A stretch of DNA of 63,856 nucleotides, counting the filler, from Sluysia triapertura (Eukaryota): the NCBI GenBank assembly GCA_046118255.1. It is 4 parts of 4 records of this genome, joined end to end, with 100 filler letters (N's around TTAATTAATTAA, not from the genome) between each part and the next. Parts side by side here need not be neighbours in the genome. Positions count along the whole stretch, not along the records: positions 1 to 14,784 come from JBJNIA010248868.1; 3 more parts are not named here. One strand, 5' to 3'. Every line of letters starts with the position of its first letter. Positions within the stretch are counted from its first letter, which is position 1. This document shows, piece after piece, positions 1,741 to 34,400 of this stretch. The notes beneath the pieces are model-generated. The model did no database searches. It had not been told where the DNA came from and worked only from the letters and a program-made list of their open reading frames with translations. Position numbers and translations under genes: made by a program.

Positions 1741-3313
1741 ATTTTGTCAGATTAAATTTTATTCAAAAAATAGTGTATAAGCTCATAAAAAAAACCTAAG
1801 CAGAATAAAATGAAACCGTCAGATTTTTCTTTTTTTATTAAGAAGATTAAATATTAAAGTGTGTTGCACAAGTTGGAGGTCTATTATCAAAGCGTTTTGT
1901 TAAGTTGTTATCTATTGTATTTTATAGTGTAAATATATTTTAAAGTGTAAATATATTTTATAGTGTAAATTGTATTTTATATGTAAATATACATATTAAT
2001 TGCAATTATAAATTTTATTTTAAAATAAAAGCAATTTTCGCATTATGAAGTTAATTTTGAAAATAATAAAAATTTTAATAAATAAATAAATAATTTTGGA
2101 AACGTATAAATTTATATTAGAATTATGTAATAATTTATATTTAATTTTTAATTGTTTGGAAATTAAATTTATATTTAAATTATTAGAATTTAATTTTTTT
2201 AATTTTACTAAAATAACTGTTTAAATCTAGACCTTCAAGGTTAAAGTTATATTATAAATAGCTAAGCATTTACAGCAATTGACACACTTAAAGGTATTTA
2301 AAGTTACACTTCAAATTATATTATAAAAATTTAATCAAGTGAATCGGATTTGATTCTTCTGACAAATTTGACTCTATTCAAAGGAGATTTTTGTAATATG
2401 TATTTCTAACGATCGTTAGTTTTACTTCATATAAGTTTCGAAATATTCTAAATAGTTTTAGTAAAATTTAGGAAAAATCTTTTTACTAATTTTGGTAGCT
2501 AACGATTAACTAAGATAACTTAATAAAATCATTTATTTAAAATCTAAAAAAGTAAAAGATTATTATTAAAATAATATAAATAAATTATTTCATAACTTAC
2601 TATATTGACATAAATTTTGTATTTGTTTTATTAATATATCAAATTGTACAAATTTTAGTAATAATAAATCTTCGTATTTGGAATATTTTTAATAAAGTTT
2701 TAAAAAAGATAAAAATTGTTTTCTCAAAGTTTCCTATAAGATGAAACCTCAGTAAATTCTTGATAATATATTTAATAGGTTCTATTTAATAAAGAACCTT
2801 TATAAAATCGCTTATACCTTCAGTAAATTATATATTGTAAGTTGATAATAAAGTTAAAACAAGCGAATAAAAACATTAGGTCACATTTCATTATTTAAGA
2901 AAACAATAAGTGAAATAACAAATATATCTCTTCAAATCCAGACAACTTATTATTGACTTCCATTAAATTTATATACTAAATTTCTTTAAAAATCCAACGG
3001 TGTAACCATAACCTGGATACATAATTTTATTCTGTAAGGTTAAATAATCTTTGAAAAGGAAAATCCATCAGTTTTATAACCTTGTTAAGTACGAATATTA
3101 ATGGGGAATTCTAATACTAATATTTAAGTAAAGTTTATGTAATTTAAATGTCATACAATTAATTTATATGGATATTTATCAGGATTCTAATATTAATATT
3201 TACGATTATATTAGATTAGTAATTAAATGTATTTTATACGATTGATAACGTAAAAATCAATTATTTTTTCTTTGATTTTATATTATTGGTATAAAAAATG
3301 GATAGATTAATAT

Positions 3314-3523
3314 TTATATTGGTGGTAAAAACCAGCTTTTTGACATTTTGACATTCTCTGGTAACTGGTTGTATATTTTTGAGACATAAATAGTATACAA
3401 CCTATCACCTAGTTTCTTATCACTGTTAATTCTGTATAGATTATTATTATGTCTCAATGAAATATTCGTCATAGTTTCCAATTTTCGTATTATTTCTAAA
3501 AGATATTCAGGACTTCCGTAATG
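3314..3523 (-). mobile_element. 3' fragment of an L2/CR1-group LINE ORF2
   Basis: HYGSPEYLLEII..ISLRHNNNLYRINSDKKLGDRLYTIYVSKIYNQLPENVK matches the PxYL..LR..GxRxF..WNxLP C-terminal pattern of L2/CR1-like LINEs. Confidence 0.6.
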
Positions 3524-6424
3524 TAAGCTGTAGGGAAATCACACAAAATTCATCACACTTCACCACATAAAAACTCTTCACATGTACACCGATTTTTAAA
3601 CAAATTACTAAACTCATTCAAAAAACAAACATAATTATCGCACATAGTTAACTTGAACTACAGCTGTTATTATTACATTTCAAATCGTATTAAACTATAT
3701 GTAATAATTATAGTCATTGTTGTTATATAATATGAATATCAAATAATAAATTTCACAATAAATTTCATACCAACATCAACAATTCAGCATTAATAAACGT
3801 AATAACCACGTTATTGTTATCAATATCATTTCTTTTATCCTTATTATCAGTCTTTTTTACTCTTCTGCTTCTCTCATTTTTACATAATAAGTAATGCTCA
3901 ATCAGAAAGACCTCAAATTGTCAAAAGAATGTATCAAAAAAAAGCAAACGATGCGCCAATAAAATCATTGACACTGAGTAATAGCATATAAAAACGATTA
4001 TTAGAAAGTTTTCTTAGTACAAGAAGATTCGGCAACATTGATAGAATCATTTCTAAAAATCGAACAGCTTCAATTATCAGAAGATTCATTATCAAAAGAA
4101 TCGACGATTAAACGTTCAATAATTATAGGTATTACGGAAATTATTGTTTGTTTGTTTGCTAGTGCCAAGTTTCACGATAACATGCGATATTTATCAGAGG
4201 TTTATCAATACATACCATTTACCGACAGTATCACGGAAAATGTAACGTTTTAGAAGATAGTTGCTTTCACAATAATAGATAAAAATACTGAGACTCCGAA
4301 AAATACAGTAATTATATTTATTTAGAATGTGATAACACAATTTACTACAAATCAAATATGTACAAACTATTATATCAGTACTTTGCCTGCTTTCTTTGTT
4401 ACCCAATAATTTCTTTTTCTAAACTTTGTAAAAATAATAAAAATAATAATTATTAGAATAATTAAAAAATTGGCATAGCAAAAATAAAAATAATGAATTA
4501 AATCGATGAAGTTCTTCTAATGCTATTCCGATATGTAATATATTTGATATTTCTGCATTTCTCATTTCCATGTACATATTTTGAAGATGGATACTATATA
4601 TTCGAAAAAGGTGTTCTCAAAGTTACAATAGACAATTTATTTACCAAAACAAGCCAATTTAATGGAATACGATGGCGCGGTTTTAGAAATTTTGCTTACG
4701 TAATTACTGATACAATTGGCCCAACGTTAGAGGCACACTTTAAGGAATGTAAACATGTGCTGGGTGTTCTATACTACAGTTTCTTTGCATTTAAAAGTAT
4801 GGAAACTAATTGGAGATATGTCATAATCAGAAGCCCTTCAATAACAAAAGACACAATTAAATTGGAAAAATCGGGTTTCATCTTATCATTTGGTATTGAT
4901 TACGGTTGCCTCGTTGAATTGAATTAGATGTATATTATCAGTTAAGCGATAATCGAGGAAAATTTTCAGAAAGCTCTAAAAAATTTGTGACAATTATAGA
5001 GGCATTTTCATTGTATTGGACAGTGTTAAAAATAAATTCATACAAATGCTTGGAACATGTATTATGGGTCCAGTATTCTGCATACAGACTTCCTGTGTTG
5101 GAGAAGTTCTATCCATGTCCTTGCATAGGCAAATAAGGTTCATATAATTTGCCCTACCCTTACGATATAACTTATAACGAAAAGTACATAGTAACAATAA
5201 ACTGGAAACCAAAAAATTACGAATTACCACAACGTAGCTACGAAATAAAATATGTTAGTTATGTTTACAATAGTACCTTGGATAAAAGAAATATTAAAAC
5301 TAACAATACTTTTTACGAGTACAGAGTTGATACACTAGGTCATGTACTTGTAAATATCAAAATAGGCTACCAATTATTCGGTATGGAATATCCTCATGTT
5401 TTCACATTGGAAATGCCCACAGTAAAAGAGGAAAGCGTCGTATTTCTTGACAGTTGTTACTATCTCGTTCTTAATATTGTGTACATTGGAAATGACAAGG
5501 TCGAAATGACGATTTTCATCACCTCAGACACTAACGTGTGGATCTCTAACACGGTAATTCTTACGAGTACAATAACAAAAAGGTTCGAATTGACCTGTGG
5601 CCAAGTTACATATCCATTCTATTACGTGTACTATATCACAGTGTTGTCTCAAACACACAAGATTAGACACCATTGTGTTATTCAAAAAACACTCGGTTTG
5701 GTATAGAAAGTTATGCTGGTTCGAAATGCTTTCATTACTTCTGGGCTGAACAGAGCGATACGTGCGATCCTCATTATCGTACTTTGAAGTACATGCATAA
5801 ATTTGAAGGTAAGGACTGGGGGAATATGTATGAATCACCAAATGTTGTTGGCTTAAAAGCTATAGGTGGTATCCGATATTTTAACATGAAATTGGAATGA
5901 TTGCAAACTGACGTGTGTTACTATAATTACGTATTTAAAATTCAAGTATATACTGGTAATTTGAAAATATCTGAATGCAAAAATGGTCCAATCATACAAG
6001 ATATTGCAGTTAATATTACCAAAGATCTACAGGGTGCCTTTGTGACCTGGAGTTTGGGATCAATAATAAAAATGTGTATTATTCGGTTGAAGTTGATCAA
6101 ACAACCACGGGTACAAAAATAAAGTTCAATACTTCTAAAAAAAATAGAAACGGAAATGTCCTTTGTAGTACCGATAGTTTTATATTTGACTTCGTTTATA
6201 TCCGTTCTTTACTTGTTATATTTAATTTTAATAAAATAGCACACTTTGTTACTGTTTTAAATTCGTTAATTTTTACAGGCCTTAAGCCTATTTCGTTGAT
6301 AATCTTAAAATTAAAGTTAAATTGTTTTTGCTTAATTAATGTTTTAATTTTTCTTAATAAAAGATTTAAAAACAATAAAAATGTTAATAATTTGTTTAAT
6401 TTAAATTGTTTATCGCCCTCAACA

Positions 6425-8373
6425 CGCATATTTGATATGTGGGACAAATCCACTAACATTGGCTGCATCATCCATGTTGGGAAATCAATTTATTTTAAAT
6501 ATTTCTTTTAAATCGGTCGATAAATTATTCAGATGATTTACAATAACAATATCGGTTACTTCACATTTTTGGAGCCAGTGGAACTGTTCAAAGATTTTAT
6601 TAATATGTTTCTGACATAATTCAATATTGGTAATGAAACTAAATATCTTCGCTTTTGTATAGACAAGAGTTTTATTTGTTCCTTGATTGTTAATAAATTG
6701 TTAATAGATGCTTCATTTCTGGTTTGTCGCTTAAAAAATCAATAGAGTATCAAACAGTTCCATAAATCTTTTCAAGCAGTTTCCATTAGATAGCTACCTT
6801 ACTTCAGTATGAAGTAAAAACCTCACATGGTCTTCATTTTGTTCTTCACAAAGGAGCTTGAAAAGACGTTAACATTTGGCACTAGCTTTAATAACATTAA
6901 CACATTTTATTACAGAATGTGGTACTTTTTAGAACAGGCGAGATGTTTTTAGCTACCACATTTTGCATCTTTCATCAGTTTTAAGCAGCCATTTTTCTTG
7001 CCCATCATATTAATAAGTTATTTAGCTTATTAAATATATCTTTGGAAGTAGTAGTGTTTTCTAATCTTTTACAGAACAACATTTCTTCTGCTAAATGACC
7101 TTTATCAATATATCTTATGTAAATTATCAATAGTGCCTTACTATCTCTCAAAGTTGATTCATCCATTTGCACTGAAAATTTTCTTGTTTGCAGCTTTTCA
7201 ACAATATCTTCACTCATTTCGTCTATTTGTCTTCTAACTGTATTTTTACTGAGTGGCATAGCTTTTACATCTTGGTCATATTTTTCAAGAACCGTTTTAA
7301 GAAATGCTGATATTATTAAATTCTCTCCTGTAGTGTGATTTTTTCCAGTTTTAGCGATGAATAAAGAAATTTGATAACTAGCCTCAGGAACATGATTATT
7401 GGTTGAGTATGGGCAGTAAATAGCGACTTTATTGTTTTTCTTTTTCCAAGTTTTTCTTCAATGTTTTAAAGTAACTCAAATCTGAATTAATATGAGCACT
7501 ATGTTTCGCCTTCAAATGCGCCTCAGGACGATCTCGTTTCATTGATTCGTTACTCAAGCATTGTTGGCATAAAAAACAAAAAGGAATCTGCTCATCGTGA
7601 ACAGCAGGTATGAATCCAAATTTTAAATATTCCTCCGAATATTGACGAGTTTTTTCTTGCTTGCAATACTTATTTTACTATGGGCTATAAGAAATAAAAA
7701 TAAAATCAATAAAAAATAATATTAAAATGTGTTAAAATTAATTCACTGTGTCATAGAGCAAACGTATACTAAAAATGCATATTTATTTAAATGTATATAA
7801 CACATTTACTGCATTGTCACCGCAAATCAAAAGGTACCTATATTTTTTCTATTTGAAAAAATTCTCTGCAAAGGTATGCTTCTAAAATTTAAATAAATAA
7901 AAATATTTACCAATAATATCTATATATTAAATATGTGTATTTATAAAAACGAGCTTCTACTACAGTTTTGACGGAAACTTATTTCAGATTAATACCAACA
8001 GAATGATGTGAAACACTACAGGTGTTGCGATAGGCCAACTAGGTGCGGACAACTACGTTGTTTAGCAAATTTCTTGACTGGCCGTGGTTTCGCCTCCCTC
8101 TGGGAAGACTGCACATTCCGCGGTGAATCCCGGACCAAGTTTATTCAACGACGCCAATCACCCAGTTGATATTTTGGTCTTGTCAAACGAAATTATATCT
8201 GATAATTATTTAAGAATTTGCTTTTTTATTAAATGTGGCACCGATATCTAGCATTGCACTTGAATGGCCCAGAGCGAAAGGGTTAAAGTTGTGTCGAGTC
8301 CATTTTCAAATCGTCCCCCTGCATGGCGCCCGCGGCCCCTTGTAGGGCGTGGGCCCCACGTTGGAAAACACTG
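6425..8373 (-). mobile_element. Decayed hAT transposon (Buster/Charlie type), 3'-truncated
   Basis: Terminal CAGTGTTTTCCAAC at 8373 (minus). BED-like RQYSEEYLKFGFI..CFLC..LSNESMK..HLKAKH; PLSKNTVRRQIDEMS..FSVQMDEST; LLHTEVR*LS. Many stops and frameshifts. Confidence 0.92.
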
Positions 8374-8389
8374 AATTAGATTGATATTA

Positions 8390-9238
8390 GGATATATATA
8401 CTAGTTATCAGCAATTGAAAATTAATCGAAAATTTTAGAATGTTCTAGAATTTTATTTCTTCTTATTTTCTTTTATGGAAATTAATAATGTTAAATGATT
8501 TGTGTTTAGAAATTTGATGATTTAAGGAGGCTGTGATGACAAAAATTTAAAATCGATTTTAACGCTAGCACTAAACTAGCGGAAACAAGTTAACAATTTT
8601 GGTTTTGATCTTAATCCTTGTGTTAAATAAGAGAAACTTACAAACTAAAACTTATAGATTTTATGTGAATGGATTTGAAATCGAATGTGGTTTCTGAAGT
8701 TATTTTCGAAGTACGATCGCACAGTATAAAAAAATTATCTGATTAAGTCAGCAACATTTGTCAAAATAACGCATTGTAATTCCACGTTTGCCTTAACATT
8801 TGAAGAATTTTCCTAATTTTTTTGAGGTTTTAGCTTTTGTAGTTCTTTATGTATCTGTTCACATCTATTTACACTCCACTCATTTAATTGTTTAAATTAT
8901 TAATTCAATTAATTATTTATTTTTAATTATATACATTAATGCATTCATTAATGTATTTATCATTTTATTAATTAAATTGCATTCATTTATTGATATATTT
9001 ATTTTTTAATTATTATTATTTTTATTATGCTTTAATTCTTTAAATTTTAATAAACTTTTAAACATTACGTTAGACTGTCATCACAATCCTCTAAGATCAT
9101 TTAGAAAATCGCTATTTTCTACAAAGAAATAAAATAAAAATATAAAATAATATAAAAAAATAAAAAGAATTTTATACCATGTTAGAAAATTCTAGAATTC
9201 CATTTGTTTTTGATTGACGGCTGGCTAATATATATTTT
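8390..9238. mobile_element. Foldback/MITE-like element with ~150-bp imperfect inverted arms
   Basis: Left arm about 8390-8541 (ends GAGGCTGTGATGACA) is an imperfect reverse complement of right arm about 9076-9238 (TGTCATCACAATCCTC...TTCTAGAA...CTAATATATA). The interior is non-coding. Confidence 0.6.
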
Positions 9239-9455
9239 CAGCTGAATCATAATGAAAAATTATACAGTTATAATCCAGTCATACGAAAATTATACATTCT
9301 CAATATAGTGTTGCAATCATTCTGTTTGTCCAAAAAATTCATTAATTTTTCGTTGGAGACAACAATATTTACCAAGGAGTGATATTTCACAATCGTTTGT
9401 TAAAATAAGCAGATTAATTCAATCCAACTTCAGATTTTAATTTCTATGTTATTGG

Positions 9456-10538
9456 TGCGAGGATTACTTTGAAGGCGAGTCGACCTAATAGAGACGGTTT
9501 ATATCTGACCGAAGGCGGTCTATTAGGATTTTAAATATAATTGAAAAAATTATACTTATCTAATAAGAGTGCAATCCTTCTCTTAATCGCTTAGCTACCA
9601 AACCGTGAATTAAACTTAGACTGTCACGTTAAACTCAAACGATCACATTAAACTAGCCAAATTATGGTCTAGTTGGATTAGCAATTAAGCTAACCGAATA
9701 TGGTCTAGCAAACTCAAAATAGATTTTATAGAAATTACACTTTAAACTAGCCTTAGTAAGGTCTAGTTAAATCTCTTACTGATTTTAGATATTAATATTA
9801 ATAAATACAAAAATGCCTTAAACTCTAAAAATTTATTATAGACAAAATTTACAAGAATGTCTTTAACTGACAACCAACAATAAAAATTACAATACGTATA
9901 ATGAATTTAAATATCACTTAAGATAACAAATTAACTTAGCAATATTTTAAAGATTTTAGAAAATAAATTAAGCAAGCCAAATTATGGTCTTGCAAAGAAT
10001 AACTGATAGATATTTAACTTTCCTATTATGGTAAAGTACAGTCTTATAAATAAACGAATTACTTGAATCGTATTATTCCAAAAATTATTGTCTTCGGATT
10101 TTAATCTTCTGATATTTTATTCTCTTACGCTTGTAATCAAATTTTATTCTTCTGCGCTTGTGTCGTTTACTAAATTTCCTTGGCTTATATAATAAATTTA
10201 TACCCACCATCTTTGTTTATTTATTTCGTGGATTCATTTAAACAAAATTAACAAAATTATTTCATTTAAACAAATTCTAGTTTTATTTAATTTTAATATT
10301 TTTTAATTAGCATTTTAATATTTGATTTTAATATTTAATTTTAATGTTTTTTAATTAGTATTTTATTATAATATTTATAATATTTAATAAAAATAGAAAA
10401 AATAAAAATAATTATAAACAATTGTTTATCAAATAATTACAAATAAAATAAACATAGAATTGTTTTTATTATATTATCATCACGTTTTACTATATTCATA
10501 TCATCAATAAATATCATCAAATTGTTTTCACTCTCACA
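9456..10538 (-). mobile_element. 3' LTR (~1.08 kb) of a Ty3/Gypsy-like element
   Basis: Termini TG(C)GAG...CTCACA. On the minus strand it is directly preceded by a purine tract GCGCGGGGAGTA (10541-10552) and a GATTTG-AGGA-CAAATC hairpin. A homologous inverted copy lies at 29434-29720. Confidence 0.7.
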
Positions 10539-10599
10539 AATACTCCCCGCGCAGGGAAGATTTGTCCTCAAATCGTAAATTGTAATAATAATAATAATT

Positions 10600-11874
10600 C
10601 ATCAGAGTCTAGATCCACGGGCGAGGTATCCGGCACATAATTCATTGGTGTTGCCAATTGTGGAGATTGGGTCGAAGTGCGAAGGAGAGCTTCCATTTTC
10701 TTTTAAGCGGACGAAGAGGTGGTGAAGAGCAATTTGGGGTACGTTGTTCAAACTCCTTTGCTAATTTTACAACTTGGTTGTGTGTTTGACGAGGCTTATT
10801 TTGTATTACTTGCCGGAGTGGTTGTGGGCGTTTGCATTGCTCCGGTATTACAACTGATCTTTGAATTGCGTTCCGGATTTCATCAGATACTGATGGTTGG
10901 GAATAGGAAGAGAAGAAGAATACGGAAGAGATTTTTTAATAGAAATTTTTGAAGAATTAGGAAAAAGTGTAGGTGGGGGGTTTATTGCAGTTTGGAATGA
11001 ACACTAGATCCTTACCTCTAATCAGATCTAAAAGCTCAACTAACTCAGATGCGAGTTCTCTACATGAAAACTTAGGACAGACAGGATATAATAGTTTAAG
11101 TGTCTGTCTCGCACGAAGAAAATCATTTTCCATAGTAAAAGATATGAAGTTGTGATTAGTAAGGTTAATCACACCTCGCAGCCAACCAAAAGGCAGCTGT
11201 AAAGATTCAGTGATGAAACGGGGTTTTAGGGACACCAGAATTTTGTCCTACAGGTGGCAGAAGAAAAAGGGTTTGATGTCGTCGATGTCTTTAGCCTTCT
11301 TCAAATTTGCATCTGAAACCTGTTGTATGTTTCGCAAGAAATTCTTAATCCTACAACGGGGCCTAATATGAGCTTCAGAATGGAACTGCTTACTATAAGG
11401 TGTGCAAGCGAGGCCGGTTTATCGAAAAAATCGAGGGCGTTTTGATAGGAAATAAAAACGAGACGTTCCTCGTCATATGCTGAAAGAGGGGGAACGTGAG
11501 TGCAGGAGGTACCACTATTCCATCTACCAAGATTAGGCGTATCATCAACACAGGGATTCGGTAAAAAGGAAGGAAAGGGCGGTAGAACAAAAAGAAGATA
11601 CACTGGGTATGCCGTGATATACAATGTAGATCCTCCCTCTACGCATAATAGAAGTAGGGTACCATTAACAACAAGGGTGATTCTAGCATCACCTCGGGTC
11701 ACAGCGACATATAGAGATTCAAAATCGTCGGGGGTATTTGGTAATCCCTTCAAAGTTTGGGGCGGAATCGAACAAAAAGTAAAGGCAGCGGAAATGAAAT
11801 CTGTGTTTGCAAGGAACAGTCAGTGCGTAGTATTTTCTGATTGAACAGAGAGTGAAACGAAGTTGTGTAGACAT
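10600..11874 (-). pseudogene. Decayed intronless ORF beginning with a degenerate RING-H2 finger (cargo ORF-C)
   Basis: ATG at 11874: MSTQLR(F)TLCSIRKYYALTVPCKHRFHFRCLYFLFDSAPNFEGITK(Y)PR(R). The CxHxFHxxC core is intact and the outer Cys positions are substituted. Open fragments follow at 11301-11753, 10957-11235 and a Pro/Gln-rich tail. GC is higher than in the flanks. Confidence 0.55.
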
Positions 11875-12141
11875 AACTAGACTGAAAAGAAAGATACATA
11901 TAATAAGTTAATATTAATTAATTATAACAAAAGTTTACATATTAACTATTAGAATTATCAATACATTAGAACAAAAATATATTTTACATTAACTAAAATT
12001 AGAGATAAAACAAAATATGAGTTATTCAACACCATCTTTTTGCGGCCAAAAATGGATAGTTAACAGCCATCACATATGGCCTGCAAATCGGAGATGCCTT
12101 TACTCATACTTATATCTTATCTTAGAATTTATATTTTAAGT

Positions 12142-13135
12142 TTATACTTTAATAAAAAGGTGATTCCTATGCCTAATAAATTGATAAAACTTATGAACTT
12201 GAAAAACGCCATGTACTATTGATAAAATTAGAAGAGAATAAGTTACAACATAGTAGACGAATATAGCGTGATGAAGACTTACTACAGAATTAGTAATAGA
12301 ACTTATGTATGAATAATTTTGATGTTGTAAACTTAAATTTTTACTTGGTTTAATAGTATGGCTTGTATCTTTAATATTATACGTGGTAGTCTTAGTAGTA
12401 GTTGTAGTAATTGATGCTAAAGTGGTGATAATATCTGGTTTATCCAAAATAGGTACCCTTAAATCGCATGCTCTATATTCTGGCCAAAATCCAGTTATAT
12501 CGTGAATCTCATTGTAACGTAAAATCCAAACCTCGATAAATGCAAGATTATATTCTGGTTCTAAGAATAGATGAATACTGGTGTTGGGTATTATTAGTGC
12601 ATAATGTTGTTCTGTATCGAACAGTGCATCGAAACTTTCACTAGTAAGATTCTTTTTATTTGATTAGTAGCCTATTAATATGCTATGTTTCATTAAGGGA
12701 TTTGATATATGAACGAAGTTATTGTTCTCCCTACGCAATATCATTATGAATTTGATAATTATTGTTAGATAACTAAAAATATATGGTTTCGTTCTAATCC
12801 TGTAATTACATAGAGACTTGATTTTCGAATCCCAATTTGTCATAATTTCTAAGCGTAAAGTTATTAAATAATTGATTTTCTATAAGGCCGTCACAAGAGG
12901 CGATCCAATATTTTGTATATTTACTAACATCTGATTGATGATAACACCATTTAGTCAAACAACACTGAATAGTAATATTGGTGATAATAACAATATCACT
13001 CCGTATTTTAGGGTATTTTGTACATTGTAATGCTTTTAGTGTGATTCGCGGTTTTATTATTGTTGGTTTTGCGTCTATGTTAGTTATACAGGTTATACAT
13101 ATACATGCTAACATTATAGACTGCAGACTTGTCAT
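12142..13135 (-). pseudogene. Type I membrane glycoprotein-like ORF (cargo ORF-B) with one frameshift and one stop
   Basis: Signal-peptide-like start (MTSLQSIMLACICITCITNIDA) and a Cys-rich segment (CCLTKWCY). A frameshift near 12815 and a TAA near 12665 rejoin it to a Thr-rich stalk and a C-terminal hydrophobic helix with a short basic tail. Confidence 0.55.
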
Positions 13136-13138
13136 TTG

Positions 13139-14359
13139 TCAATCTCCGTACATTGATGGTAAATTATTATATTCGTAAACAGGAGGTGGTGCCAATGGAA
13201 ATCCGGGTGGCGGCCCAAAGTTACCTCTGTGCGGAATAGTATATCCATCGTCATCGTCATTATTTGGAGGTAAACATGGATATCTACATCTATTTGACAC
13301 AAACATAATAATTATCAATACAACTATTGATAGAGCGATGATAAACAATATTGCTGCTAATACTAGAATCAAAAAAACTGGATCATTTTTTAACATTTCC
13401 GATAATAATAGATATTTTCTTGTTCCTTTTAGGGCGAAATACAATTGTTCTAATCTTGCTGGTGCTACATATATTCTAGCGATAATATGTCGTTCTTCAT
13501 TGGCCAAAAAGTCAGTACATTTAGCAATAGGGTTTATCAAATTATTGATATAATATTCCTTCACATTCCAAGAACTAAAGTTGAGTCTAGCTGGTTTTAG
13601 GCACACAAATCTCACTTGAATATCATTCTGCAATACTTTAACTCTTACTTCAGTATTATAATTACGAAATTCAAGATACTCGGTTTTATAAATTTGTACA
13701 TCATAAATATTACACTGTACCGCAGTGATTATCATAAATAACAATAAAGGTATCAGATTTTTATTGACAGTGAATGGACATATCTTTTTACTAATATCAA
13801 TTACATGCAGTATGATCCACATTGCATATATTACTATAAGAATTACTGAAATAGGAATACGTTTGTATATTAATGTAATAACGTTAGGTACTATATCGTT
13901 TGTTAGATTATTTTTACTTTCAACTCTAAATGCACATTTGTTCGTGTGCCTATTCTGCACCAAATTTTGCACTTTCCTCGTGTTTCGCTTTGTATCTAAT
14001 GTAAATGCTATCAGCATTGGTCTATATGCATATTGCAAACAACGTGGAATCTTATTTATGTGATGCGGTTTACCTATTAATAATGGTTCTAAATAAATTC
14101 AATATATATCGAACATTTTCTTCGAAGCATATTTTATTTCCCTATATTCACTGTAAATGTTTGTAATTGATATCTTTCGTTCTTTCCCATTATTAATAGC
14201 AGCATACAAATTTCTATATTCCTCATCCTCTTCAATATCTATAGCTTTAGTAAAATTAATTAAGGATAAGAATATAATTATAACTATTAGTAATGCTGTC
14301 CTCCATGATTTCTTCTGATTATTTATTTTATTCAATAAATAATAAATAACATTATTCAA
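13139..14359 (-). CDS. Multi-pass membrane (poly)protein (cargo ORF-A); one frameshift near 14130 joins the 86-aa and 299-aa ORFs
   Basis: N-terminal signal-like segment, internal TM, second signal-like segment (LIPLLLFMIITAVQC), second ectodomain and a long TM. The cytoplasmic tail contains DDDDGYTIP and PPPVY. It is intronless and its stop lies 3 bp from the ORF-B ATG. Confidence 0.55.
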
Positions 14360-14589
14360 TTCAATAATTTTCTAAATAATAAATATTAATAATATTATTT
14401 AATAATTTTGCAAATAATAAATGTTTAATAATTTTAACTTTAAAATTAAAGTAATGATGTTGGGATTGTCTTAGTTAGTGTATAGAATTTAAAAAAATAT
14501 ACAAGAAAAAATGATGTAAAATAGTTGAAATATGACAATATAAACGTAATTAGTGAATAGTGAAATATTTATAATCATTTTGAAACAGA

Positions 14590-14784
14590 AGAATACCTTG
14601 GAGTTCCAAAGACCTTTGTAGGGTATTGAGACCCTTGTGAAGACTTAAGTAAGGGTTTGGAAAAATGTCTTGAAGTATGAAGATACCTTTGAACTTCGGA
14701 ACCTTTTGATCATTTTAGACCTTGTTGAATGATCTTGTTGATCTTTCGGAATCCTTGAAGACATTTAAGATCTTAATAAACTTT
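14590..14784 (-). repeat. Dispersed repeat R1, copy 2 (cut by gap)
   Basis: Similar to 1060-1215 in the same orientation. Confidence 0.7.
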
Positions 14785-14884
14785 NNNNNNNNNNNNNNNN
14801 NNNNNNNNNNNNNNNNNNNNNNNNNNNNTTAATTAATTAANNNNNNNNNNNNNNNNNNNNNNNNNNNNNNNNNNNNNNNNNNNN
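14785..14884. other. Scaffold gap with artificial TTAATTAATTAA linker; same at 29265-29364 and 52230-52329; plain N gap at 22931-23060
   Basis: Identical 44N-12mer-44N layout at three sites. Confidence 0.95.
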
Positions 14885-14892
14885 AGTATAAA

Positions 14893-14953
<61 letters not shown>

Positions 14954-16842
14954 ATAAAAATATTCTTGAAAACCCAACATATAAATAATACTTATATAAT
15001 TAATGAAAGTTGGATTAAATGAATGTTGCAGAATCGACATCTACAAATAGAATATTGAATAATTTAATACATTAATATAATTTAATGTACAGGAACCTAG
15101 TAAACAAAATTCTATATTTCTTACAATATGCAGAGATTTATTAAATATGTCCGTATAAATGAACAACAAAAATAGTACAACATGATTAATTTTGATATCT
15201 AAAATCAATAGATTTTTACAATTTGGTAATTAAATTTTATATTTATGCGGTGAACACTATTTCTACGATAATTTGGGTTATTAGACAAATCTGCATTATA
15301 TATTTCTATATTATATATTATAAATATATATTATATATTAAAATAGTTGTCACAGAAGAAAATACAGATATAAAAACTAAGAAAATAAACACTCAATACA
15401 GTTTTAATACTTTAGTTAGAGAAATTTTAATTGTAAAAAATATAATTATTAATTTTTGTTTTTTGTTATCTAAGATTAATCCCCATAATATCATATACCA
15501 AAAAAATTTATATATATATATATTCATACCGATGTGACAGAATGTGTAGTGAAAAGAGCAGTAAAATTGCAATATAGTGGCCAACGTGGTACAGTTTATC
15601 CATTGTATCGTTCATATCATTAATAATGACTGCAGATACCTGTTTAGACGCATTTCAAACAGATAAAATAAGAATAAGTAGTGACTTAATAATAGAAGTA
15701 AAAAATGGAATCTTAAAATATTATCACCTTGCAGTCGGAAGTTATTCTGAAAGCAAATATGGATTTTGTACGCAGGGACATTATAACTTAGACAGAATAA
15801 CCTAAAAAATATAATCCCAATCATATTATATACCAAAAATGGCACCATTGCAATGTATTAATTATTTTTTTAAGTACACGTAGGAATTCATTTATTATAC
15901 ACTGAATTATTTATTCGAAAAAGAATTTCATTAACACTGTATAAATTTTATTTAAAATTTTCAGTATATTTTTTCATCAAATATAGATGAATATGAAAAT
16001 TGTTCGAACAATAGAAATAGTTATATTAGTTTAACAAACCTCAACACCGATTCCACAAATATTCGCAACGACTTTATATGAAGCATACCAATAAAACATT
16101 CGGCAAAGTTCACCTTCAACCATCTAAATGTCACTTGCTGAAATTAATAAAGCAATTTCATATTATTCCGAATTGAAACGATTTTTAATTATTAAAAAGC
16201 TTTACGAATAAACTCATTTGTGATGCAGATTTCTTTTACTTCATTAATCATTATTAATTTAAAAATAAAATTTATAATTAATTAAACTGTTTTTTCAAAT
16301 GTTGTTATGGCAATGCTTTACATAAATGCTTGTGTGATGATTTTGTAAATTCTTTGATAATTTATTTTGTTTTAGGCAAAATGTTTTAATTAGTTAAGCA
16401 AACAATAAAAATATATTTTTTAGCAGTTAGTCGAATACAGATCAACATAATAACAATAAAATTTTGCGAGACCATTTTTTGTTTTTACCAAACCACAATC
16501 GAAACCATTAATTCAAGCTTCACAGATCACAGATCAGCTATTCATTTCAGGTGAATAACTTGTGGTAAATATCACAAAATGATGACTGAATAATTTTTCC
16601 ATTTTCAACTCTTAATTTAAACCGTCCTTATCTAACAAATCATGATTCTAACTCGTTTTTTATGTTGCAGATGGAAATGCGAACAAAATTTTAAATTTAT
16701 ATTCAGTTTCCAACCAAATTACCCACTTATTTATTCCTAATTTGCATCACAATTATTTTAATGTAAACATAAATTAAAATACTACACCTGATGAAAAATT
16801 TATTTTATTAATTTTAAAAATTATAATTTATTTACTTGTTTA

Positions 16843-28700: not shown

Positions 28701-29364
28701 TTTTTCATTTGTGTGAGTGTACAAGTGTGTGGTTAGTCTGGAGTTACTGCACATTTCTCATCGATACTCACATTATTATAAAATGAGGCAAACCTTTGTG
28801 TATTTTTCTTAAAGAATTGATTTTGATTCTTTCATGATTGTTGAATCTTGTTATTAATTTCACGATTTATATTTGAAAATTAGATAATCCAATAGACGTT
28901 AATTTCTTATCCATATGTAGTTATGAATGTTGTTTGGCACTCGGTGGAGGGCGTTAATTGCTTGAGATTAGAGGTAGTTATGTTTAATTTTATATCATGA
29001 TGCGATAATTCAAAACATTTTAATATCTCGGGAGACTTTGTTATTTTTACGGCGGATCTAGTACTACACAAGATGATCAACTTATGCTTCGGCATTTCTA
29101 CTCTCATTCCGTTAGTGTATGAATTAGTTACAAGGTTGTTGTAAGAAAATTGGTGAGAAACCTTATTAAACTTATAGTCTCTCTTCGTTTTACAATTGCC
29201 CCTAGATATTTTGTAACATGAGGTCAATTTAGGGAAATGATAACGTCTATGGAGACATTCGTAGNNNNNNNNNNNNNNNNNNNNNNNNNNNNNNNNNNNN
29301 NNNNNNNNTTAATTAATTAANNNNNNNNNNNNNNNNNNNNNNNNNNNNNNNNNNNNNNNNNNNN

Positions 29365-29433
29365 CATTATGAGCGGGTATTCTTAAGTACAGTCCATAAA
29401 ACGGGTAATAATACCCGCCCCGCTCATAATGTG
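29365..29433. mobile_element. Tiny TTAA-flanked MITE (piggyBac-type end) next to a gap
   Basis: CATTATGAGCGGG...CCCGCTCATAATG inverted repeat followed by TG-TTAA, with an internal CGGGTA/TACCCG hairpin. Confidence 0.55.
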
Positions 29434-29720
29434 TTAATAAGGCTAGTTTAAAGTTTAATATTCTTAAAATCTTTCATCTGTACGCTAGACCATAATCGGC
29501 TAGCTTAATTGATTCGTAAAATTAGGCCAGAGTCTGGCTAGTTCAATTTGATTTAACTTATATAAGTTTTTACTTGAGTTTAACTTAATTGGAAGTAGTG
29601 TTACGCTTCAATTGATAAGTTTATTTAGTATTCTTTTAAGTATATTAAAATCCTAATAGACCGCCTTCGGTCGGATATAAGTCGTCCCTGTTAGATGAAC
29701 TCCGCTTCAGATAAGAAATC
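29434..29720 (+). mobile_element. Partial inverted copy of the 9456-10538 LTR
   Basis: AAAATCCTAATAGACCGCCTTCGGTC and AAGGCTAGTTTAAAGT are reverse complements of 9509-9534 and about 9738-9753. Confidence 0.8.
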
Positions 29721-31443
29721 TTTTTGCAAGAGTTTTAATATAAAACTACACCATAAATATAATATTAATTATTCATTTTAAATAATTTTTAAATAATAAT
29801 TTATCATTTTAATTTTTCATTAGTTTGCTATTTTTAATAAAATCAACATTAAATAGTTAATAAATTATTTTAAATTAAGAATTAAATTTTAAGAAAATCT
29901 TAATTAGAAAATTTTCGACTAAGGGAAAGATAATTCTTATTTTAATGATTATAATTTTATTATAGTCATATTTGATTTACTCTATTGTTCATCTATTTAT
30001 TATTCAAAGTTAATTTATTATTTTACTATTAATTTACTATTAATTTACTATTTCTTCATTTATTATTAACTATATAATTTGAACTATATTATTATCAGTA
30101 AATTTATTGGTATTGAGAATATTAATGAATTTATTTGGAATATTATAAAAATTTGTATATTGAACGATTAATTTTGAAAATATTATAAGATTTCGTATAA
30201 AAAGAACAGAATATAGACCAAAAAACAGAATTACTTTTCAAAATTATTGAATTAAAACGTATCGAAATTATCTTGATGAAAGATTTAAAATACTTAGACT
30301 TAAAATTATTTATCGAAAATATTTTAACAATTGATTTGAAACAAGAAGATTCAAATGAGAATTATATTTTCTTTTTTGTCGAAAATTATTAAAATTACAA
30401 TCAAATTTTTCTTATTAATAATTATATTGATTTACAATTGAATTAATAAATATTTATTAAAATTATCTTTTCATTTTATCATTTGTAAATTAGACAAGGG
30501 TTAGAAATAGAGTAGTATGGTGCAATAGTAAATTTTAGATTAAGTAATTATAATCAAACCTAATCATTAAGTTTAAATCAAACATTGACTAGCAAAATTG
30601 AATTTAAGTCGAATATTAATTAAGGCATAGTCACATAATTATCGTTTAGTCGATTATTAAGCACTTCTATCTTTAAGGACGAGTATATTGATTCATACCT
30701 CCAGTTAAGTTTAATATAAAGTGATAACATTGATAGAGAAGTTCAGAATAATTATAAGAATTCATAAAGAGATTTAAATTAAGAGTAAAGAGCAAGAGTT
30801 TTGCAAGGACCTATAAAATTTATAAAGTATAAAATAGCATTCAGACATATTTAACGTTGACGAAAGTTTAATAAAGTAAAGGCAAAGAAATAACACATAA
30901 ATTTTTAGACTTAGAAGAAACAAAAATATTTTCCATGTACGACATAAAATCTAATTATAATATTATAAAAAATTTAGGAATATATTATAGTTAATTTAGT
31001 TTTGTTTTTATTTTGAGACCAAAGAAATTTCAAATTTTATTTGGACTTTCATCTCTTACATAAGGAACAAGTTGGAAATACGATTTTTCAGGTAATATCA
31101 AAATCAGTAAATATTAGACAAAGTATTGTGATAGTTTTGATTTTAAAGTTAAACTAAAATAATGTAAAAATAAGTTTTACAAAGTTTAAAAAGTTGTATT
31201 TATTTAAAGTTATCGAATAATTTTAAAGAGTTATTAATATTTAGTAAAGAATAAATTTAAAGATAATAAGTCTAATTTAAATTCCGAGTTATTAACGACA
31301 CATGTTTTATTAGATAACGATAAAATATTATAACTTCGTAAATTTATACCATAAAGAGAAATGTAATGATACTTTTTAGAATTCGAGTCATTTAAATTAA
31401 AGTATTAAAACTATTAAAAATTATAAAACTACAATATACTTAC

Positions 31444-34400
31444 TGTAATTCCACACCATTCGCATCGAAATCCTGTCAAACATTCATTTGACCAGCATGC
31501 TTTTTTACAAACTTCGCATTTAGAATTACTTGGCAAATTACCTTCTCTCCAATGATGGAATTGTTTATATGAGTTCTACAAAAAATAAAATTATTTTAAC
31601 ACTAGAACTACTAAGACCGTCATATTGATGGTTATCAAATTTCATGCTTAAAAATTTGATATAATTTACGCATTATTCTAGGATTTTATAACGTGACTTT
31701 TAATGAAATATAAGAACATTTAAATATTCCTATTCAATTTCCACTCAGCCATTTTAACTTCCATAATTAGTATGACCTATACCTATTTATACCAATGACG
31801 GCTTTGGCAATTTCAAAGTTGAATGATCCAGTGCTGGACAGCCATTATAACGAGATCTATTTTGCTCCGTTTACAATTCAGTTTAGAACTGAGTGGTATT
31901 ACTGATAAATGTAATCAGGACGCAATCATTATCAGTTGTAAAATCTGTGCAATCTTTACAAAAGTCCAATCTCTGGAAATAGTATGAACCTATTTTTATA
32001 AAATTTTGAAATTTATTTTTTGTAAGTCCTAGGCAAAAAAGTTTTCGAAGAATTCAAAGAACTCACTATGATAAATGAAGAATGTTCGGACACTAATTCA
32101 AGTAATAATAATTTGGACATATTTTGCGTGGAAAATAAAACTGATTTTTCAGATTCTCAAGAAGGTTAAGATGAAATTGAAGTAACAGTTACTTAACAAA
32201 GTGAAGATGAATATGAAAATGAAGATTCAGGGAGTGAATATGAAATTTCCCGAAAGAGCCACAAACGCAGCAAGCGATTACGTATATATTTGAATCGGAT
32301 AGTCAAACAGAAACAAAAAAGACAGCAGAAAGAGATTTCTCTCGAGCCAAGCTTGTTACAAACCAGATCAGAATATAAGCGTAGATGAACAAATGTTTCC
32401 CACAAAGGCAAGCTGCAGATTTCTGCAATGTATGCCGAATAAACCGGTCAAATTCAGAATTAAGTTTTGGTCAGCTGTAGTCGTGCGAAGTAAATATCAT
32501 AAATGGCTTTCCATATTTAGGCAAAGATGAACTTAGACCATCACGAGTACCTTTGAATGAATTTGTGGTTTTGAATCGTGTAGAAAATTATGTAAATTGT
32601 GGGAGAAATATAGCAACGGATAGTTTTTTTACGTTTACAACTCGCAAAGAAGCTATTGGCCAAAAAATAAGTCTTGTTGGAACTATGCGAACAAATAAAG
32701 AGAATTGCCGAAAAAAGGTAAAGTTAGAAATCATGGCTCTTTTCTCCACAAAACTCTACAAATCAAATGACTTTTTTCTAACAATTTACAAAAGCAAGTC
32801 TCGTAAAAAAGTACTACTTAGCTCAAAACATAAATCCTTAAAAATTGCTTCTAATAAAACACAAATTCCTGCAACTGTGTCGTTTGGCGTAGATGTAGAT
32901 AGCCAAATAACCAAATATAGTGTAAAAGCAGGGTCACGCAGATGGCCTTTGCAGGTATTTTACAATATTTTGGACTTGGCAGCAATGAATTCGTGGATTT
33001 TATATAAAGAGACTTGTGATAAAAATATAACTAGAAAATAATTTTTGTTTCAGTTATCCGAAGAACTGTCCAGTGAATAAGTTCTGCAGAAAAGCTTCCT
33101 CCCAAAAACAAGAACGGAAGGAAATGGACTGCACTCCAGAAGACTCAAAAAAGTCCAAATTCGATTGTGCAACAAAAGAAGCGATCTATACCTGCAATGC
33201 AAGCAACAGATATGTTTGTGGCAAGTGTTCATATAAGATAACATGAACTTGAAAAATATATCTCATAGTTATTCTTGCAAATGAAATGTGTTTTACTATA
33301 AATTCAAATAGAAACTGTTTTGTTTGTTTTTTTATTATATTATATTCTTTTATTTACATTACCAAGGTCAAAAGTTACAATGAAATCCATGATCAAAAAT
33401 CTGTCAATTTGGCGGGTGCAGTAAAATTAGGTATATATTTATCATCGGTAGTTCTAGTGTTAAACAATGCTACGATAAATAAATGTATAACCATAAAATA
33501 ATTTTAACTAAATAATGTTCAATTAAAGTACATTTCCCATTATACGTAACATCAGGTTCAATAACTAACTACGAACTGTGGACCTTTAAAATTGCTAATC
33601 CGGAGCTTGAAAATAGTTCGAGATTAGAGTGATTCATTGTTGCAGTATTAAAATATAAGTGCTTGTCAAATTTAAATCAAAGTATATTTATTTTAGCATA
33701 CTTCCATGAAATATTTGTGATCGATAAATATTAAACATCATTAAATCCATTATAATTCATTTTAATAACGGCGTGTTTTTATTCGATACAAACAGCTGAG
33801 ACGAGTATAGGACTTATATTGTAAACTAAACTCGATAATATTCAGATTGAATTTAGAATTAGGTCGAAACTAAAGTTAGGCGGAACAAGTAAGATATCCA
33901 AAATAGCCAAATATTAGATATAGGATCATTACAGAAGAGACATTAAGACTGTCAAATTTGATAATAGAGTCAGACTAAAATAAAATCAATACGTGAGACA
34001 AACATAATCAACTAAAAGATATTGCAAGGGTAAAAGTGGCAGAATATATTACTACTGACCAAGACAATTTACTTATTAGCCAAGAGACATTTTAATCAAA
34101 ACATGAAATTTTACAATAATAATAGAAGTAATAATAAATAGAACAACTTATAAGTAATTTAATTAATAACCTGCATTAGCACCACGTGGTTGTAATGCTT
34201 AAATAACTAAATTAATTAAAATCAAATTACAAACTTGAATTTTGCGAATTTTCAGGCTCTACAAAAATATAAATCAATATGTTTTAAAATAGCATAAATT
34301 TTATCACACATTATAATGAAGTATATGATAATTGAGTATAACACTAAAACTACCAAGACCATCATTTTGACGGTTTTCAAACTTCATGCTTAAAAATTTG

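Follow-up and report, generated by a model that had tools for sequence, protein, structure and literature searches.

To our knowledge, every retrotransposon so far described with an envelope relies on a captured fusogen of the F, gB or Gn/Gc-like kind, or on a tiny FAST-like protein. The phlebovirus-like Gn/Gc envelope of nematode Bel/Pao elements has the topology signal, ectodomain, transmembrane (TM) segment, signal, ectodomain, TM segment. Errantiviruses are env-carrying Ty3/Gypsy elements with an F-type or gB-type Env (PMC13524379, PMC12992720), and in those of flies env is as a rule spliced, with its start exon upstream (PMC12992720). The sORF2/FAST-like proteins of the insect MDG1 group are 63–107 aa long and myristoylated, with an ectodomain of about 30 aa, and such small TM proteins may let capsids pass from cell to cell with no classical Env (10.1101/2025.03.14.642691). 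That LTR elements of invertebrates can carry cargo ORFs is already well known. The planarian Burro/GYPSM1 elements are giant, high-copy Ty3/Gypsy elements with accessory ORFs and with cargo for ubiquitination and apoptosis, of the RING, BIR, MATH/TRAF and BCL2-like kinds, and decayed fragments of them are described (PMC6431247). Burro1 carries B-IAP (as summarised in PMC13465017). In the bdelloid rotifer elements Vesta and TelKA, a variable ORF3 downstream of pol has TM segments, cysteines and RxxR, and is exchangeable cargo (PMC5408684).

The locus described here lies in a window of 63,856 nucleotides (the whole stretch of DNA that was analysed) from Sluysia triapertura. Read on the minus strand, the order is ORF-A, ORF-B, ORF-C, a weak purine tract and a 1,083-bp TG..CA unit. 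On balance we favor reading it as the dead 3' end of a multi-copy LTR retroelement of Ty3/Gypsy or Bel/Pao type in an animal genome, with three extra genes before the 3' LTR, a place where elements of this kind mostly have a single envelope gene. The parent element would then probably be large. That the cassette belongs to an LTR element at all is likely. The features are as follows.

9451..9455, unstranded: candidate half of a target-site duplication, outside the element, its partner beyond the assembly
9456..10538, minus: putative 3' LTR, 1,083 bp, TG..CA, from its ends and a depth step
9650..9992, minus: four bulged-A palindromes, sense-strand starts 9992, 9766, 9708 and 9672
10539..10553, minus: weak polypurine-tract-like element directly before the LTR
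10642..11874, minus: ORF-C, about 410 codons, 41% G+C, with an N-terminal partial RING-H2
11882..11896, minus: candidate splice acceptor, CAG after 11/12 pyrimidines, 7 nt upstream of the ORF-C ATG
12142..13135, minus: ORF-B, about 330 codons, from a stop-free run, a TM segment and depth
13139..14314, minus: ORF-A, about 390 codons, from stop depletion, hydrophobic segments and depth
14315..14560, minus: A+T-rich spacer (15% G+C), leader- or intron-like in composition
14561..14784, unstranded: repeat R1, very high copy (summed depth 222,000)
14785..14884, unstranded: artificial scaffold linker at the contig end, with identical linkers at 29265 and 52230
29434..29729, plus: diverged copy (70%) of the outer 290 bp of the LTR, by similarity to the 9456 unit

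The closest known systems are the planarian Burro elements and the cargo ORFs of rotifer Vesta, and the gene set here differs from both. Burro/GYPSM1 shares with it an LTR element in high copy, ubiquitination-type cargo, accessory ORFs and decay (PMC6431247). Most of the Burro cargo is encoded within a single Gag-Env-Pol polyprotein, in which an F-type env separates gag from pol, whereas here three separate ORFs lie directly before the LTR. The RING here is of the H2 type, N-terminal and without BIR, F-type homology is lacking, and the host may not be planarian. The Burro signature, a BIR/RING IAP module with an F-type env in a Gag-Pol polyprotein, is absent from the present cassette. The likeness to Vesta and TelKA is in orphan ORFs with TM segments, cysteines and RxxR; those elements have one ORF3 of 210–230 aa (or an F-type env, GDSL esterase or DEDDy nuclease), whereas here there are two glycoprotein genes and a RING ORF (PMC5408684). 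The favored reading gains support from the TM or RING domains known in cargo ORFs of LTR elements from rotifers and planarians (PMC5408684, PMC6431247). With errantiviruses the cassette shares the position before the 3' LTR, a signal peptide, a furin-like site, a TM anchor and a possible spliced start (PMC13524379, PMC12992720), but the ORF-A ectodomains fall far short of F or gB fusogens in length and show no homology, and there are two further ORFs. The sORF2/FAST-like class does not fit either, since ORF-A (~390 codons) and ORF-B (~330 codons) have signal peptides and far larger ectodomains. A literature search of titles and abstract openings found no description of this gene set; Repbase or Dfam may hold the family.

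Three broken genes on the minus strand

ORF-A, ORF-B and ORF-C are genuine coding sequence, and each is broken by stops or frameshifts in the window copy. Stop depletion and codon-position G+C typical of real genes support the favored reading. The sequence-only reading had described this cassette on the minus strand. Its ORFs, membrane segments, 3-bp spacer and TG..CA unit are confirmed, while its RING is partial, its hairpin is not significant and its purine tract is short. It had also called the ORFs tightly packed, which is true of the 3-bp A–B junction and not of the 266-bp spacer between ORF-B and ORF-C.

The ORF-A frame has one stop in 390 codons against about 33 expected (a stop lies at 14101–14099), and its 319-aa stop-free run is reached in 0 of 500 simulations. 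The layout is a signal, an ectodomain, a TM segment, an internal signal, a second ectodomain, a TM segment, a Cys pair and a Pro-rich tail with PPxY. Hydrophobic segments fall at residues 26–44, 172–190, 197–227 and 337–355 of the X-read frame, and the two ectodomains are about 130 and 115 aa. The first ectodomain has RxxR at 13987–13976, and the single PPxY is at residue 396 (13186–13175). There is no in-frame ATG before the signal peptide. ORF-A was kept under purifying selection, and the window copy decayed neutrally afterwards. By hand count over 30 codons, diverged ORF-A copies have 18 synonymous and 6 non-synonymous differences (binomial p 3e-5 at an expected share of 0.33), which indicates purifying selection. 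The TM segment stays hydrophobic in the diverged copies, and one subfamily diverges just past PPxY and remains open for 10 more codons. Among the 27 listed near-fixed differences of the window copy in ORF-A and ORF-B, 9, 12 and 6 fall on codon positions 1, 2 and 3; this does not differ significantly from an even spread (p 0.37) and fits neutral decay.

No relative of ORF-A appeared among 7,996 scored candidates or in 1.84 billion representative proteins, and there was nothing in Pfam, viral contigs, metagenome contigs or phages. The best ESM Atlas score is 0.86, to unnamed clusters, and the best PDB match has an E of 1.2. A predicted fold of the second half is a low-confidence model (pLDDT 49) with 0 Foldseek matches at E 0.001. 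Set against class I F and class III gB fusogens, ORF-A has no Pfam or PDB match and its ectodomains are too short. Its topology is like that of Gn/Gc, but both ectodomains are about a third of the Gn/Gc size, Cys-poor and without a Pfam match. The earlier description of the element as enveloped thus finds neither fusogen homology nor a fusogen fold behind it.

ORF-B starts at 13135, in the same frame as ORF-A, after the 3-bp spacer. It has a signal-like N terminus, a Cys-rich part, N-glycosylation sequons, a Thr-rich stalk and a single C-terminal TM segment. Its 173-aa run is equalled in length by 0 of 500 simulations, and the frame is broken by at least one frameshift (12880–12810) and one stop. 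No match was found in the smaller libraries (Pfam, PHROGs, NCBIfam), nor for the second half in PDB or viral contigs.

From its sequence, ORF-C is likely a ubiquitin-ligase gene. A RING-H2 is defined by eight zinc ligands, C3H2C3; the partial domain at 11847–11785 has five of the eight (C, C, H, H, C) and is frameshifted right after, and its Pfam zf-RING E of 0.0017–0.004 is below the curated cut-offs. A run as long as its 172 aa comes up in 3 of 500 simulations. The frame is interrupted by three stops and by at least two frameshifts, one near 11750 and one near 11370. There is no BIR in the six frames of 10541–11917, no relative of the second half among 223 candidates of a large protein search or in PDB, and no match to the middle frame in viral contigs. 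An SF1-helicase reading, from a motif-VI-like stretch near 11740, is no more than a weak lead, with an Atlas score of 0.81 to UvrD_C_2 that is under the lead threshold and no Pfam match.

Copies of the cassette

The copy evidence comes from the contigs (Logan) of X1, the sole run containing the stretch. The family carrying the cassette is repeated and diverged. Contigs pile up over ORF-A, ORF-B and the outer end of the terminal unit, far above the flank. Summed depth, which is not copy number, is 5,000–27,000 for ORF-A, 2,000–16,000 for ORF-B, 130–2,600 for ORF-C, 5,900–7,400 at the LTR outer end, 430–925 inside the LTR and 85–278 in the flank. That the evidence is from a single run, perhaps related to the source, counts against the favored reading. 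The sequence-only reading had named single-copy ORFs as grounds for giving it up, and diverged copies of all three are present in the run. Those of ORF-C are in contig records 2 and 3. Record 6 spans the ORF-A/ORF-B junction, and record 2 covers the stretch between the end of ORF-C and a point 13 nt short of the purine tract; both are diverged. Run depth, diverged contigs and the second LTR-end copy in the window together mark a dispersed multi-copy family.

The same depths could come from a nested composite, in which R1, ORF-A and ORF-B form one abundant mobile family and ORF-C and the LTR another, the two being neighbours here or in a few copies only. The depth of ORF-C is about tenfold under that of ORF-A and ORF-B, its G+C is 11 points higher (41% versus 30%), the depth of R1 is about 30 times that of the LTR end, and the ORF-B copy in record 4 stops matching at the ORF-B stop codon. 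However, all the parts are co-oriented, the 266-bp spacer between ORF-B and ORF-C has no terminal repeat or target duplication that we could find, and in another copy a contig at depth 19.5 connects spacer position 12080 with the end of ORF-B at 12142. Fast-evolving LTRs would also be hidden by the 80% match threshold, the window's own second copy being only 70% alike. We consider the composite unlikely, even as the uneven depth and the G+C contrast of ORF-C fit it as well as they fit variable cargo in the favored LTR element.

The terminal unit and the contig break

The terminal bases of the 9456–10538 unit are inverted-complementary at 5 of 6 positions. Its outer end is supported by the depth step and by the end of a single-locus contig (8471–9492, depth 14.9) that stops just within the repeat. 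The inner part is A+T-rich and holds a 48-nt duplication. There is a TATA-like site at 10191 and there are several AATAAA. Against the LTR element we favor, the TG..CA ends differ from the TGTT..AACA consensus of animal Metaviridae LTRs (PMC3601003). The purine run is 6 nt long and 4 nt from the TG, shorter than canonical, and fails a 7-purine test. The sole GGGG run of the 5.2-kb sense strand directly precedes a 5/6 inverted image of the outer end; GGGG and inverted end occur jointly in 47 of 2000 simulations, under a criterion chosen after the site was seen. This arrangement and a second copy ending at nearly the same point give the 3'-LTR claim of the sequence-only reading moderate support, and the short purine tract takes from it.

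That second copy, at 29434–29729, is cut by a small inverted-repeat element (29365–29432) and a gap, and has the outer end and the palindromes in common with the first. Six of the window's seven palindrome matches fall in the unit and its second copy, where 0.3 are expected per window. Loops vary and stem changes are paired, and the palindromes are candidate RNA hairpins or dimer-binding sites. The outer 325 nt of the LTR overall fold better than shuffles (z -2.8, 0/100); the same comparison gives z -1.6 and 5/100 for the second copy. The hairpin beside the purine tract is not significant (z -1.2, with 25/200 shuffles folding as well), and one in the last 90 nt of the LTR is no better than shuffles. 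The LTR core motif has 0 matches in metagenome and viral contigs. No tRNA lies in the window, and Rfam has no match in 9000–15000.

It is quite unlikely that the unit is instead the end of a large DNA-type element with virus-like cargo, whether an integrated DNA virus or a long terminal inverted repeat bearing palindromic sites for a transposase. The four palindromes near the end resemble subterminal binding sites, the second copy is inverted relative to the first and 20 kb away, and two more intronless virus-like cassettes are in the window. But 9456 and 29729 fail as paired terminal inverted repeats, being only 70% alike, without a common target duplication and with three assembly gaps between them. 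A G tract followed by an inner end that mirrors the outer one would be expected in an LTR and not in an inverted repeat, and the cassette has no transposase, polymerase or capsid gene. A Helitron would have TC..CTRR ends and a subterminal hairpin, and a TIR element paired inverted repeats and a target duplication; this end has TG..CA, and the copy at 29729 shares no target duplication with it.

At the other end, the contig stops at 14784 within R1, and the linker that follows consists of two blocks of 44 N around a 12-nt sequence with stops in all six frames. R1 has a 70% copy at 1024–1161 with different neighbours, and might be either an insertion of its own or a cis element internal to many families. 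The window shows no second LTR, target-site duplication, gag, RT or integrase, and no gag, protease, RT, RNase H or integrase is in the pieces scanned within 9456–14371, the upstream part being beyond the contig end. The missing gag and pol, which had been remarked on in the first reading, are thus an artefact, because the contig ends inside a very high-copy repeat. The suggestion of a non-autonomous vehicle rested on the same break. Such a LARD-like vehicle would carry these genes only and borrow Gag and Pol from a helper, and we think it very unlikely. In its favor, the 4.2 kb in front of the LTR lack gag and pol, an absence that the contig end accounts for, and the copies have many internal deletion joints. 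An apparent cassette-free joint (10598 to 14589) is probably a false match, its short side being an AAT run that mimics the A+T-rich sequence before the other copy of R1. Purifying selection on ORF-A would be easier to explain in an autonomous element. An expanded host family of surface-protein genes beside a chance repeat is extremely improbable: the TM segment, Cys pair and PPxY tail recall host membrane adaptors of the Shisa/WBP1 kind (with no Pfam match), but the cassette has no introns, a spacer of just 3 bp between genes, very high depth and several breaks in each gene, while an INPP4-like host gene in the window has an intron of about 295 nt. A homology search with that INPP4-like gene, meant to place the host lineage, gave 3 candidates of which none is significant, and the host can be described as an A+T-rich animal.

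A possible route of expression

If the LTR element we favor is real, its genomic RNA would start in the 5' LTR, and gag and pol would lie beyond the contig break. Spliced subgenomic RNAs would express ORF-A and ORF-C, the ORF-A start codon coming from an upstream exon as in errantivirus env, and stop-restart at the 3-bp spacer would allow ORF-B to be translated after ORF-A. Signal peptidase would cleave ORF-A into two small membrane subunits. Together with ORF-B, a mucin-stalk glycoprotein, these might form a surface complex by which Gag particles leave cells or pass between them. The PPxY tail might recruit NEDD4-type ligases and ESCRT for budding or sorting, and ORF-C, as a RING-H2 ubiquitin ligase, could blunt host defence. 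At its fullest, this would be a new infectious retroelement lineage. Its envelope would be three small orphan glycoprotein subunits (two from ORF-A, one from ORF-B) rather than F, gB, Gn/Gc or FAST, with PPxY in the tail of the envelope rather than in Gag and a RING-H2 anti-defence ligase of its own made from a spliced RNA, so that a "complex retrovirus" organisation was reached independently in an invertebrate. We regard that as doubtful. If true, a selected membrane polyprotein with no detectable relative, a glycoprotein and an E3-ligase-like gene would widen the routes by which retroelements leave cells and counter the host, and might supply a new fusogen or adhesion fold. At minimum, orphan, selected, element-borne genes are added in a genome with other such cassettes, within the limits of a window copy that is dead and cut by an assembly gap. 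Among the listed RNA datasets none contains the stretch, which speaks neither for nor against expression. As to the splice sites, the acceptor candidate for ORF-A at 14315 is poor, with 3/12 pyrimidines, and the one before ORF-C at 11882..11896 ranks second of the 95 YAG sites in the cassette.

Coding content of the cassette

The cassette that reads on the minus strand from 14784 down to 9456 is a real, multi-copy mobile set of orphan genes under selection. Its parts are listed with their depth in one public sequencing run, X1 (0.49 of sampled words), which may be related to the source.

Parts of the cassette in reading order, with the summed depth of X1 contigs aligned to the window at 80% likeness; summed contig depth is not copy number.
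14561-14784, R1, a repeat cut off by the contig end, deepest of the window: 222,000
13139-14314, minus strand, ORF-A: 5,000-27,000
12142-13135, minus strand, ORF-B: 2,000-16,000
10642-11874, minus strand, ORF-C: 130-2,600
9456-10538, putative LTR: 430-925 in the inner part, 5,900-7,400 at the outer end
Left flank: 85-278, with a single-locus contig at depth 14.9

The three ORFs are genuine reading frames, as the sequence-only reading had proposed: stops are depleted, and open runs of such length are rare or absent in simulation. ORF-A contains a single stop over 390 codons, about 33 being expected, and its 319-aa run, like the 173-aa run of ORF-B, was equalled in none of 500 simulations; the 172-aa run of ORF-C was equalled in 3 of 500. 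G+C, 26% over the window, declines along the codon in ORF-A (0.37, 0.30 and 0.24 at positions 1, 2 and 3), as it does in ORF-B's second half and midway through ORF-C. All three are broken in the window copy: ORF-A carries one stop, ORF-B a stop plus one or more frameshifts, and ORF-C three stops plus two or more frameshifts.

By hydropathy, ORF-A runs in the order signal, transmembrane segment (TM), internal signal, TM, and ORF-B has a single C-terminal TM. The tail of ORF-A also carries a PPxY motif (13186-13175), which had gone unmentioned. The RING-H2 assigned to ORF-C appears at its N terminus in partial form, with 5 of 8 ligands and Pfam E-values (0.0017-0.004) under the cut-offs. Apart from this RING, none of the three ORFs matched the family libraries. 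Large protein searches returned no relatives of ORF-A or of the second half of ORF-C, and the predicted fold of the second half of ORF-A was unusable. Right after the RING, in the second frame of ORF-C, is a helicase-motif-VI-like stretch (11700-11760, minus strand), which scores 0.81 to UvrD_C_2 clusters in the ESM Atlas and has no Pfam match.

A pyrimidine-rich candidate acceptor, ranking second among 95 YAG sites, stands 7 nt upstream of the ORF-C ATG, and ORF-C may be expressed through it from a spliced RNA. ORF-A has no in-frame ATG; two weak AG sites, at 14315 and 14372, agree with it in phase. Its start could be supplied by an upstream exon, as it is for the env genes of fly errantiviruses (PMC12992720). 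It is equally possible that the start was lost in the window copy. ORF-B begins 3 bp after ORF-A in the same frame, the spacer being as first described, and its translation by stop-restart or read-through would fit.

Copies and selection

The cassette is a repeated family under selection, and a rough inference from X1 puts its size at hundreds of copies. Among eight pieces listed (8,711 more exist), seven are diverged copies of ORF-A, B or C; among the same pieces, one crosses the A/B junction and one extends out of ORF-C, stopping 13 nt short of the purine tract. Five of six loose ends listed (1,518 more exist) fall in ORF-A. Four of them align without gaps and, by hand count, cover 30 codons: 18 with synonymous differences, 6 with non-synonymous ones and 6 unchanged (binomial p 3e-5 at an expected synonymous share of 0.33; 5e-4 at 0.4). 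The fifth departs immediately downstream of the PPxY, and its frame continues for 10 codons with no stop. Of 40 near-fixed differences listed (773 more exist), 27 lie in ORF-A/B, and their spread over codon positions (9/12/6) fits decay of the window copy after insertion. A contig of depth 33.9 brings 12151 next to 10580, separated by 28 LTR-like letters; it may represent a form that passes from ORF-B to the LTR and lacks ORF-C, or a false match in A+T-rich sequence.

The putative LTR and the contig end

We regard the cassette as probably, by no means certainly, the 3' end of a large LTR retroelement. The unit at 9456-10538 is likely an LTR. It has the TG start and CA end of the ~1.08-kb LTR claimed earlier, 5 of 6 terminal bases are complementary, and its outer end matches a depth step and the end of a single-locus contig at 9492. 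The purine tract before it is short, however, and the ends of the unit differ from the TGTT..AACA consensus for animal Metaviridae (PMC3601003). A GGGG run, the sole one in the 5.2 kb of sense strand, stands directly before the inner end; such a site appeared in 47 of 2000 simulations under a criterion chosen after the fact. Part of the unit recurs in the window:

29434-29729, second copy of the outer 290 bp of the LTR, 70% identical, ending at nearly the same point
29365-29432, MITE-like element of 68 bp with perfect 13-bp terminal inverted repeats, at the contig start and adjoining the second copy

The two copies share a 26-nt core exactly, and the second is cut by the MITE-like element and by a gap. 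We also noticed bulged-A palindromes, of which the unit has four and the second copy two. These make up 6 of 7 matches in the window (0.3 expected), their loops vary and their stem changes are paired. They may be hairpins in a leader RNA that serve in packaging, or places on the DNA where a dimeric protein would bind.

R1 occurs a second time at 1024-1161 with different neighbours and may be a separate element; that the whole cassette is a composite of separate elements is unlikely. A DNA-type element is quite unlikely. R1 holds eight short (C/A)AAG(G/A)(T/C) motifs, and two joints at 14588-14589 are perhaps near its edge.

The lack of visible gag/pol in the sequence-only reading was an artefact. 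The contig stops inside R1 at an artificial linker from 14785 (44 N, 12 nt with stops in all six frames, 44 N), so the absence says nothing about the 5' half. A non-autonomous vehicle is improbable. Identical 100-nt linkers at 14785, 29265 and 52230 join contigs, so adjacency across them is untrustworthy for any finding in this assembly.

For the retroelement reading, the arrangement is comparable in its working to the cargo regions of Vesta elements in rotifers (PMC5408684) and Burro elements in planarians (PMC6431247). By the membership tests, it falls outside errantivirus env (PMC13524379) and the Burro IAP module (PMC6431247), and its ORFs fall outside sORF2/FAST proteins (10.1101/2025.03.14.642691). 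That it encodes a new multi-subunit envelope is doubtful. No title or abstract opening listed in the literature searches described this gene set.

Other elements of the window

Two more intronless cassettes, several transposon remnants and a host-type gene are present:

43360-43902 and 44709-45089, minus strand, second cassette: degenerate RING-HC, then an intact 181-aa ORF
4520-6240, plus strand, third cassette, decayed, ~570 codons, with a broken ORF alongside at 3890-4450
32425-33464, 37542-38495, 31597-35449, 7005-7674 and 40784-41020, decayed piggyBac-type copies and hAT-like and PIF1 fragments
59178-59900, minus strand, spliced phosphatase gene, divergent, with CKSGKDRT (Pfam Y_phosphatase3, E 7e-4)

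In the second cassette, an acidic N terminus accompanies the RING-HC (Pfam zf-C3HC4, E 0.034), and the 181-aa ORF is 800 bp downstream. Its motif spacing by eye resembles BCL-2 BH3/BH1/BH2; this BCL-2-like reading found no Pfam or PDB match, and the AlphaFold pLDDT was 34. Burro cargo includes RING and BCL2-like domains (PMC6431247). The third cassette encodes a signal-like start, a beta-rich body and a C-terminal TM; it has no Pfam match over 4502-6102 and is unrelated to ORF-A/B by tblastn. The transposon remnants comprise a transposase fragment of piggyBac type, which matches Pfam DDE_Tnp_1_7 at E 5e-8, and weak DUF4371 hAT-like and PIF1 (Helitron-like) fragments. Together with the low G+C and the phosphatase gene, they indicate an animal with A+T-rich DNA. 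The INPP4-like phosphatase has an intron of ~295 nt with an A+T-rich acceptor; its divergence and this acceptor suggest a fast-evolving animal lineage.
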